Notes under the pieces: model-generated
Databases searched by the model: none
Seen by the model: only the letters and a program-made list of their open reading frames with translations
Told to the model about the DNA's origin: nothing
Part shown: piece after piece, positions 34,086 through 34,146 of the stretch
How the letters are laid out: each line of letters begins with the position of its first letter
Numbering within the stretch: the first letter of the stretch is position 1
Sequence record: PQ249397
Reading direction: 5' to 3' (one strand)
DNA: 64,000 nt
DNA from: Escherichia phage Pu-Krd-SF3
Translations under genes and position numbers: made by a program

Positions 34086-34115
34086 GTTTACAAGTCCCTC
34101 GTGTTGTGTTACAGT
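34086..34115 (+). promoter_or_regulatory. T4-type early promoter (alc)
   Basis: GTTTAC 34086-34091, 18-nt spacer, TACAGT; part of a ~55-bp cassette repeated at 47031. Confidence 0.55.
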
Positions 34116-34146
34116 AGTCTTACTGACATAACATGAGGACTTTATG

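Follow-up and report, generated by a model that had tools for sequence, protein, structure and literature searches.

A duplicated early-promoter cassette in Tequatrovirus and its possible role as a translational insulator of alc and alt.-3

The early genes alc and alt.-3 of T4-type phages are separated by many kilobases and encode different proteins, and yet nearly the same 54 nucleotides precede both of them. The question raised by this arrangement is what the repeated cassette does and how a second copy of it came to be in the genome. It is addressed here for a stretch of 64,000 nucleotides from Escherichia phage Pu-Krd-SF3 (PQ249397), which is referred to as the window in the following. Gene annotation was taken from PQ759884.1 (Escherichia phage Pu-Krd-SF4, Tequatrovirus), which is 100% identical and has the same coordinates.

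The two copies and their promoters

Copy 1 of the cassette (34086-34139, plus strand) is located between the stop codon of rnlA (gene 63; stop at 34082) and the ATG of alc (34144), and copy 2 (47021-47074, plus strand), which is identical to copy 1 at 51/54 positions, is located upstream of alt.-3. The start-to-start distance between the copies is 12,935 nt, and the three substitutions that distinguish them are G16A, C27T, and G32A. An earlier note on this DNA had reported a near-identical cassette of ~55 bp present twice, ~12.9 kb apart; this holds, as do its three substitutions, which match exactly, but its position of 47031-47085 for copy 2 has to be corrected because the true start lies 10 nt further to the left. 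[quoted passage not shown]

Copy 1 serves alc (34144-34650, plus strand), which encodes an inhibitor of host transcription and was identified by annotation and tblastn. Copy 2 serves alt.-3 (47082-47372, plus strand), which encodes an uncharacterised early protein of 96 aa (annotation; PMC11618068). Alt.-3 is uncharacterised and non-essential according to the CmdTAC paper, and mutants whose Alt.-3 is extended at the C-terminus evade the CmdTAC defence system.

The edges of the repeat are sharp. Its left end is the G of GTTTAC, its right end is the final A of GAGGA, and the outer flanks are unrelated. The first 29 nt of copy 2 also encode the end of the alt.-2 remnant including its stop codon TAG (47047-47049), which lies within the -10 element. 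Only two sites in the window match the 54-mer with ≤3 mismatches, and the chance count expected from 100 dinucleotide-preserving shuffles is 0.00, which rules out a chance repeat. With blastn, the 54-mer was found at 997 places in 499 phage records including T4 and T2, which corresponds to two per genome; the presence of two copies in ~500 genomes rules out an assembly artefact. A number of copies higher than two was ruled out both for the window (≤3 mismatches) and, at the sensitivity of blastn, for whole genomes.

The other early promoters in the window have only the consensus in common with the cassette (repeat family D4). A second near-identical pair of early promoters, one of which is the motA promoter, was observed at 5431-5503 and 23179-23251 with 88% identity over 73 nt; extended promoter paralogy is thus not unique to alc and alt.-3. 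Further repeats in the window, which belong to the D1/D2 family set and are presumably coding, are a tandem 288-nt repeat with 77% identity at 58439-59014 and four 68-nt repeats at 16906-17882.

Both copies match a T4 early promoter very well, from which promoter activity is predicted. A consensus scan placed the predicted early-type sigma-70 promoter of alc at 34087-34115 (plus strand), consisting of the -35 element TTTACA (34087-34092), a 17-bp spacer, TGn (34107-34109), and the -10 element TACAGT (34110-34115). The predicted early-type promoter of alt.-3 at 47022-47050 (plus strand) consists of TTTACA, a 17-bp spacer, TGn, and TATAGT (47045-47050). Both copies match 9-10/12 consensus positions of the T4-type early (sigma-70) promoter, with the extended TG present. 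Assuming the usual distance of 7 nt after the -10 element, transcription is predicted to start at A34122 in copy 1 and at A47057 in copy 2, which correspond to ~136300 and ~123057, respectively, on the minus strand of NC_000866.4. The -35 GTTTACA, the 17-bp spacer, TGn, the -10 element, and the predicted A at +1 are features in common with T4 early promoters, for which the consensus GTTTAC-N14-gtggTAttaT has been given (Miller et al. 2003, quoted in a GenBank note; PMC2988021). In contrast to ordinary T4 early promoters, the cassette pair is near-identical across 54 nt and thus far past the consensus positions. The same cassette was marked as a T4 early promoter by the independent annotators of phage ASO78A (MZ726795.1). 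Nothing specific on the alc and alt.-3 promoters was found in a time-course proteome/transcriptome paper on T4 (PMC9697503) or in a DksA RNA-seq paper (PMC6024815). The Shine-Dalgarno (SD) sequence GAGGA, with which the cassette ends, is located 4 nt before the ATG of alc (34144) and 7 nt before the ATG of alt.-3 (47082).

Predicted pairing of the promoter spacer with the Shine-Dalgarno sequence

In predicted folds of transcripts that start upstream of the cassette, the SD is base-paired. The predicted RNA hairpin of copy 1 (34092-34142, plus strand; -25.7 kcal/mol, z -4.75) has a 5' arm formed by the promoter spacer and the -10 element (34092-34116), a loop at 34117-34120, and a 3' arm at 34121-34142, which contains the SD GAGGA at 34135-34139. 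The predicted RNA hairpin of copy 2 (47029-47076, plus strand; -23.4 kcal/mol, z -4.92) consists of a 5' arm at 47029-47051, a loop at 47052-47055, and a 3' arm at 47056-47076 with the SD at 47070-47074. None of the shuffled sequences (0/200) was as stable as the cassette hairpin fold. All three differences between the copies preserve the fold, as one changes a G.U pair into A-U, one changes C-G into U.G, and one affects the loop. The antisense strands fold less stably (-17.9 kcal/mol for copy 1 and -21.6 kcal/mol for copy 2), as is expected when G.U pairs are present, and this indicates a function in the sense RNA. Comparison of the cassette with the covariance models of Rfam gave zero matches at the gathering score or at E ≤ 1.

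In both copies, the predicted +1 coincides with the first bases of the 3' arm, and the leaders that begin there are essentially unstructured in the prediction (-3.3 and -4.2 kcal/mol, z +0.8). Since the predicted +1 lies past the 5' arm, transcripts from the cassette's own promoter should be open and read-through transcripts should be closed. Strong or moderate complementarity between spacer and SD was found for only 4/11 early-type promoters in the window, which start at 2330, 34086, 39782, and 47021. The first of these (2330-2390), located between denB and ndd, follows the same spacer-SD scheme: the spacer CTGTTCCTCTGTGG can pair with CTACGGAGGAACAG, which contains the SD of a small ORF at 2388, and the predicted duplex has an energy of -23.8 kcal/mol.

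The conservation of the pairing was analyzed with a set of 37 distinct leaders, comprising 35 alc leaders from several Tevenvirinae genera and the two Tequatrovirus alt.-3 copies. Protein scans of IMG/VR had returned 5 loci per single-protein query and 43 loci when an Alc alignment was used as query. Most alc leaders retain GTTTACA-17-TAnnnT with a spacer complementary to their own SD region, and the SD pairs with the promoter spacer in the minimum-energy fold of 29/37 distinct leaders. The sequences of the arms differ among the genera: the 5' arm in the spacer and the 3' arm including the SD are TCCTCATCAG and CTGATGAGGA in the Jiaodavirus alc leader, TCTCCTCATG and CATGAGGAGA in that of Dhakavirus, TCTCCATTTGG and CCAAATGGAGA in that of Karamvirus, and TCTCCGTTTAGTT and AACTAAACGGAGA in that of Gelderlandvirus.

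A MAFFT alignment of all 28 hairpin-type leaders did not bring the 3' arms of all lineages into the same columns, and for this reason an alignment-free duplex test and a subset of 15 sequences were used. In the alignment-free test, cognate spacer/SD duplexes had a mean energy of -20.0 kcal/mol compared to -10.9 ± 3.6 kcal/mol for non-cognate ones, and the cognate partner was rank 1 in nearly all rows and columns. With the 15 leaders, the helix was recovered by RNAalifold on an unfitted MAFFT alignment with compensatory changes in 4/10 pairs, and pair counting showed that 89% of the cells were paired. The covariation score of 0.347 compared to 0.220 ± 0.030 for shuffled alignments was reached by none of the shuffles (0/500), and slid registers scored far lower. 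In other Tevenvirinae genera, the predicted spacer-SD pairing is again found upstream of alc, accompanied by compensatory changes.

Eight of the 37 leaders, all of them from alc, have no SD pairing. In Mosigvirus and two other lineages, there is only a mini-hairpin inside the spacer; in three leaders, the hairpin ends just short of the SD; and in Gaprivervirus, a terminator and an extra alc-like ORF take the place of the hairpin. Inspection of the short rnlA-alc gap of Mosigvirus revealed no compensating terminator. These unpaired leaders and the Mosigvirus gap indicate that an insulator at this site would not be indispensable. The extra ORF of Gaprivervirus is short and is located between rnlA and alc, for example in phage VR7 (retrieved locus 460-693); it has a strong terminator and a different promoter upstream and lacks the hairpin cassette. 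A short palindrome (CCACATGGAATGTGG / CACAAGGAAGTG type) is found repeatedly within promoter spacers, immediately ahead of the -10 element: the middle-type promoter of rnlA (32906-32931) has it, and so do the promoters of alt.-3 in other genera and of alc in Mosigvirus.

A stable stem in front of a gene could also be a terminator or attenuator of upstream transcripts that overlaps a restart promoter. In one GenBank record (ASO78A, MZ726795.1; retrieved locus 163-212), the cassette hairpin is annotated as a rho-independent terminator, predicted by WebGeSTer, that overlaps the annotated early promoter, and it is labelled as a terminator in some phage records. However, the stem is not followed by a T run, the downstream sequence being CTTTATGATG in copy 1 and ACACAAAATG in copy 2, and in the versions of other genera it is followed by A-rich sequence. 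A terminator scan for intrinsic terminators, consisting of a GC-rich stem and an immediate U tract, found none at either copy, yet it did detect the true bidirectional terminator after alt.-3 (47377-47398). The label in MZ726795.1 is doubtful because there is no U tract. In addition, the sequence with which the spacer covaries is in every case the SD, and termination by the cassette hairpin is regarded as very improbable. A simpler explanation would be that the element is a strong promoter only; its inverted repeat would then be a DNA operator for a dimeric protein, a processing site for RNase III or RNase E, or without function, and selection for the promoter would have retained the second copy as a neutral duplicate. 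In line with this, the promoter elements are invariant in 14 alc-locus and 15 alt.-3-locus copies with the exception of two positions within the -10 element, and a double-stranded RNA of ~20 bp could be a substrate for RNase III. Against it, the two sides of the stem covary as the sequence diverges, the G.U pairs make the fold specific for the sense strand, and the 3' arm invariably has the SD as its anchor. A mere promoter is therefore an unlikely description of the cassette, although somewhat less so than a terminator, and a fold that acts on the SD in sense RNA is preferred here.

Recombination in the block and the origin of copy 2

The earlier note had further considered the two copies as a recombination hotspot of the promoter/stem-loop type (PeSL) that shuffles gene modules. 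This was not borne out for the pair, as the layout differs from that of PeSLs and, in five aligned genomes, no breakpoint lies in either copy and gene order is kept. An interval of 15 kb was aligned with T4, T2, DalCa, EP01, and KRT47. Gene order across the interval is the same in these five Tequatrovirus genomes, and the alignment contains no indel boundary inside copy 1 or copy 2. The nearest breakpoint belongs to a deletion of 1,690 bp that ends 11 nt upstream of copy 2. This deletion lies between two CTAAAAAGT 9-mers and is explained by this 9-bp repeat of its own. It has affected a full-length second alt paralog (2058 nt; retrieved locus 29373-31430), which is intact in T2, DalCa, EP01, and KRT47 and is shortened by the 1,690 bp in T4 and Pu-Krd-SF3. 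The remnant of this paralog is alt.-1/alt.-2 (46664-47049), which also has a 1-nt frameshift.

Indels do coincide with neighbouring early-promoter leaders of the same block. Gene 30.8 is missing in T2, where the promoter and leader of 30.8 are fused to the coding sequence of 30.7. The junction is located in GGAGAATAAAA(A)TG, which is common to two adjacent early-promoter leaders (39825-39843 and 40229-40242; ~23095-23112 on the T2 side), and judging from this junction the loss of 30.8 is a PeSL-like module deletion. In KRT47 and DalCa, an extra ORF of 527-528 bp is present exactly between the leader of the 36763 promoter and the start of cd.2 (window 36815-36825; retrieved locus 4520-5047). 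The indels at these leaders support the PeSL idea locally in the block, but not for the pair at alc and alt.-3.

If the cassette were a mobile element of the PeSL type, its copies would be sites at which the block is excised, inserted, or shuffled, as has been proposed for RB49/phi1 and PST/T4. Like PeSLs, it combines an early promoter, a stem-loop, an SD, and an ATG and occurs more than once in the genome, in this case as a direct repeat. Furthermore, T4 recombines at short homologies (PMC9391042), neighbouring leaders carry the indels described above, and some polymorphisms are common to both copies. PeSLs, however, have their stem-loop just upstream of the -35 element, where it acts as a terminator, and they occur in large numbers at short distances from each other, on either side of ORFans in hyperplastic regions (PMC2839356, PMC4122927). 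In contrast, the stem of the cassette spans the spacer, the -10 element, and the SD and has neither a U tract nor a terminator call, and the cassette occurs in only two copies per genome across ~500 genomes, which are 12.9 kb apart around essential genes and have breakpoints in neither copy. Genes 30 and 31 are essential in T4. A crossover between the copies would delete both genes and would thus be lethal, and a duplication of the 12.9-kb interval would exceed the margin of headful packaging. A role of the pair in module shuffling is accordingly improbable, and the pair, which has no breakpoint association, adds little to the understanding of genome shuffling in T4.

A different type of exchange is suggested by the alt.-3 loci of other genera. 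An early promoter dedicated to alt.-3 also follows the alt stop codon immediately in five phages belonging to Gaprivervirus, Mosigvirus, Marfavirus, and Karamvirus. The spacers of these promoters contain only a small palindrome (CACAAGGAAGTG-like) that gives a mini-hairpin, and the SD is free. The alt.-3 leader of Gaprivervirus VR20 has the same length as the cassette and matches its first 9 nt (GTTTACAAG) and its last 9 nt (ACATGAGGA) and little else. As the alt.-3 promoters of other genera lack the pairing, the Tequatrovirus alt.-3 copy looks like a copied-in patch of the alc type. We infer from this that an alc-type interior probably replaced the interior of the native alt.-3 promoter in the ancestor of Tequatrovirus. 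The edges of the patch would be short homologies that both promoters already had, the left one being GTTTACAAG and the right one ACATGAGGA, and such pre-existing homologies would explain the sharp boundaries of the repeat.

The relation between the copies within Tequatrovirus was followed in a set of 16 genomes or contigs that yielded 14 copies at the alc locus and 15 at the alt.-3 locus; both were available from 13 of them. A metagenome scan yielded 8 loci, and the evidence on gene conversion comes from the 13 genomes. The cassette has 12 polymorphic sites, of which 4 are common to both loci, and there are zero fixed differences between the paralogs. The mean distance between paralogs is 2.5 within a genome and 2.3 between genomes, and the distances between orthologs are 1.8-2.5. 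The copies are identical within two genomes, one of which, KRT47, has the uncommon C27 allele at both loci. The 3' arm of the cassette (positions 41-54) is invariant. The copies may exchange sequence by occasional gene conversion without crossover; the shared variants are all transitions, so that recurrent mutation could account for them instead.

Proposed function and comparison with known T4 devices

Translational insulation by the cassette would require that RNA from upstream promoters crosses it. A MotA-box site resembling a middle promoter is located upstream of rnlA (32904-32931, plus strand; ATGCTTC, 12 nt, TACTAT; pattern match) and is a likely source of later-class RNA crossing copy 1. 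Upstream of alt, a match to the late-promoter consensus TATAAATA (44581-44588, plus strand; pattern match) is a likely source of late RNA crossing copy 2. The scan that detected the terminator after alt.-3 found no terminator-like site from rnlA to copy 1 or from alt to copy 2. With middle and late sites upstream and no intervening terminator, later-class transcripts plausibly cross both cassettes.

We consider it fairly probable that the spacer of this early promoter keeps the gene behind it from being translated when the RNA has been read through from upstream. In each copy, a host sigma-70 early promoter would be joined directly to the leader of the following gene and would double as a translational insulator. 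The DNA from the -35 element to the end of the -10 element would encode an anti-SD strand, which would be transcribed by a polymerase that started upstream, at the middle promoter of rnlA in the case of copy 1 and at the late promoter of alt in the case of copy 2. The read-through RNA would fold into a hairpin of ~20 bp that buries the GAGGA of alc or alt.-3. RNA from the cassette's own promoter would begin past the 5' arm, at ~34122 or ~47057, so that no hairpin could form and the RNA would be translatable. As a consequence, Alc and Alt.-3 would be made solely from their own immediate-early transcripts.

If this is true, the synthesis of Alc and Alt.-3 would be restricted to the first minutes of infection, and there would be a reason why some early genes of T4 adjoin a promoter of their own although they are covered by upstream transcripts. 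For phage engineering, adding or removing an upstream promoter would not raise the expression of such genes unless the 5' arm was altered. More tentatively, anti-SD hairpins embedded in promoters could represent a conserved class of 'own-promoter-only' insulators of early genes in Tevenvirinae, in which gene conversion could carry the whole module (-35 element to SD) into a new locus; the step from alc to alt.-3 in the ancestor of Tequatrovirus would be one such case. Transfer of the module would then copy the temporal translation rule of one gene onto another.

T4 itself already has the element, which would operate in the manner of a known T4 device, and the regulation proposed for it is largely expected. 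Neither alc nor alt.-3 is included in the list of hairpins sequestering ribosome-binding sites in a review on T4 (PMC3014915), and no description of an alc or alt.-3 spacer-SD hairpin was found in the literature searched, outside of which are Liebig and Ruger 1989 and Miller et al. 2003. The closest functional analogue of the cassette is found in the T4 genes e (lysozyme), soc, 49, and I-TevI, which are treated in the same review. In long transcripts of these genes that start upstream, the SD is locked in a helix, and translation takes place on a shorter RNA without the 5' arm, which is made from a promoter inside the structure (PMC3014915). In e, soc, 49, and I-TevI, this internal promoter is a late one and translation is postponed, whereas the promoter of the cassette is an early sigma-70 promoter, so that translation would be confined to the earliest transcripts. 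A further difference from these four genes is that the anti-SD arm of the cassette is the promoter spacer itself.
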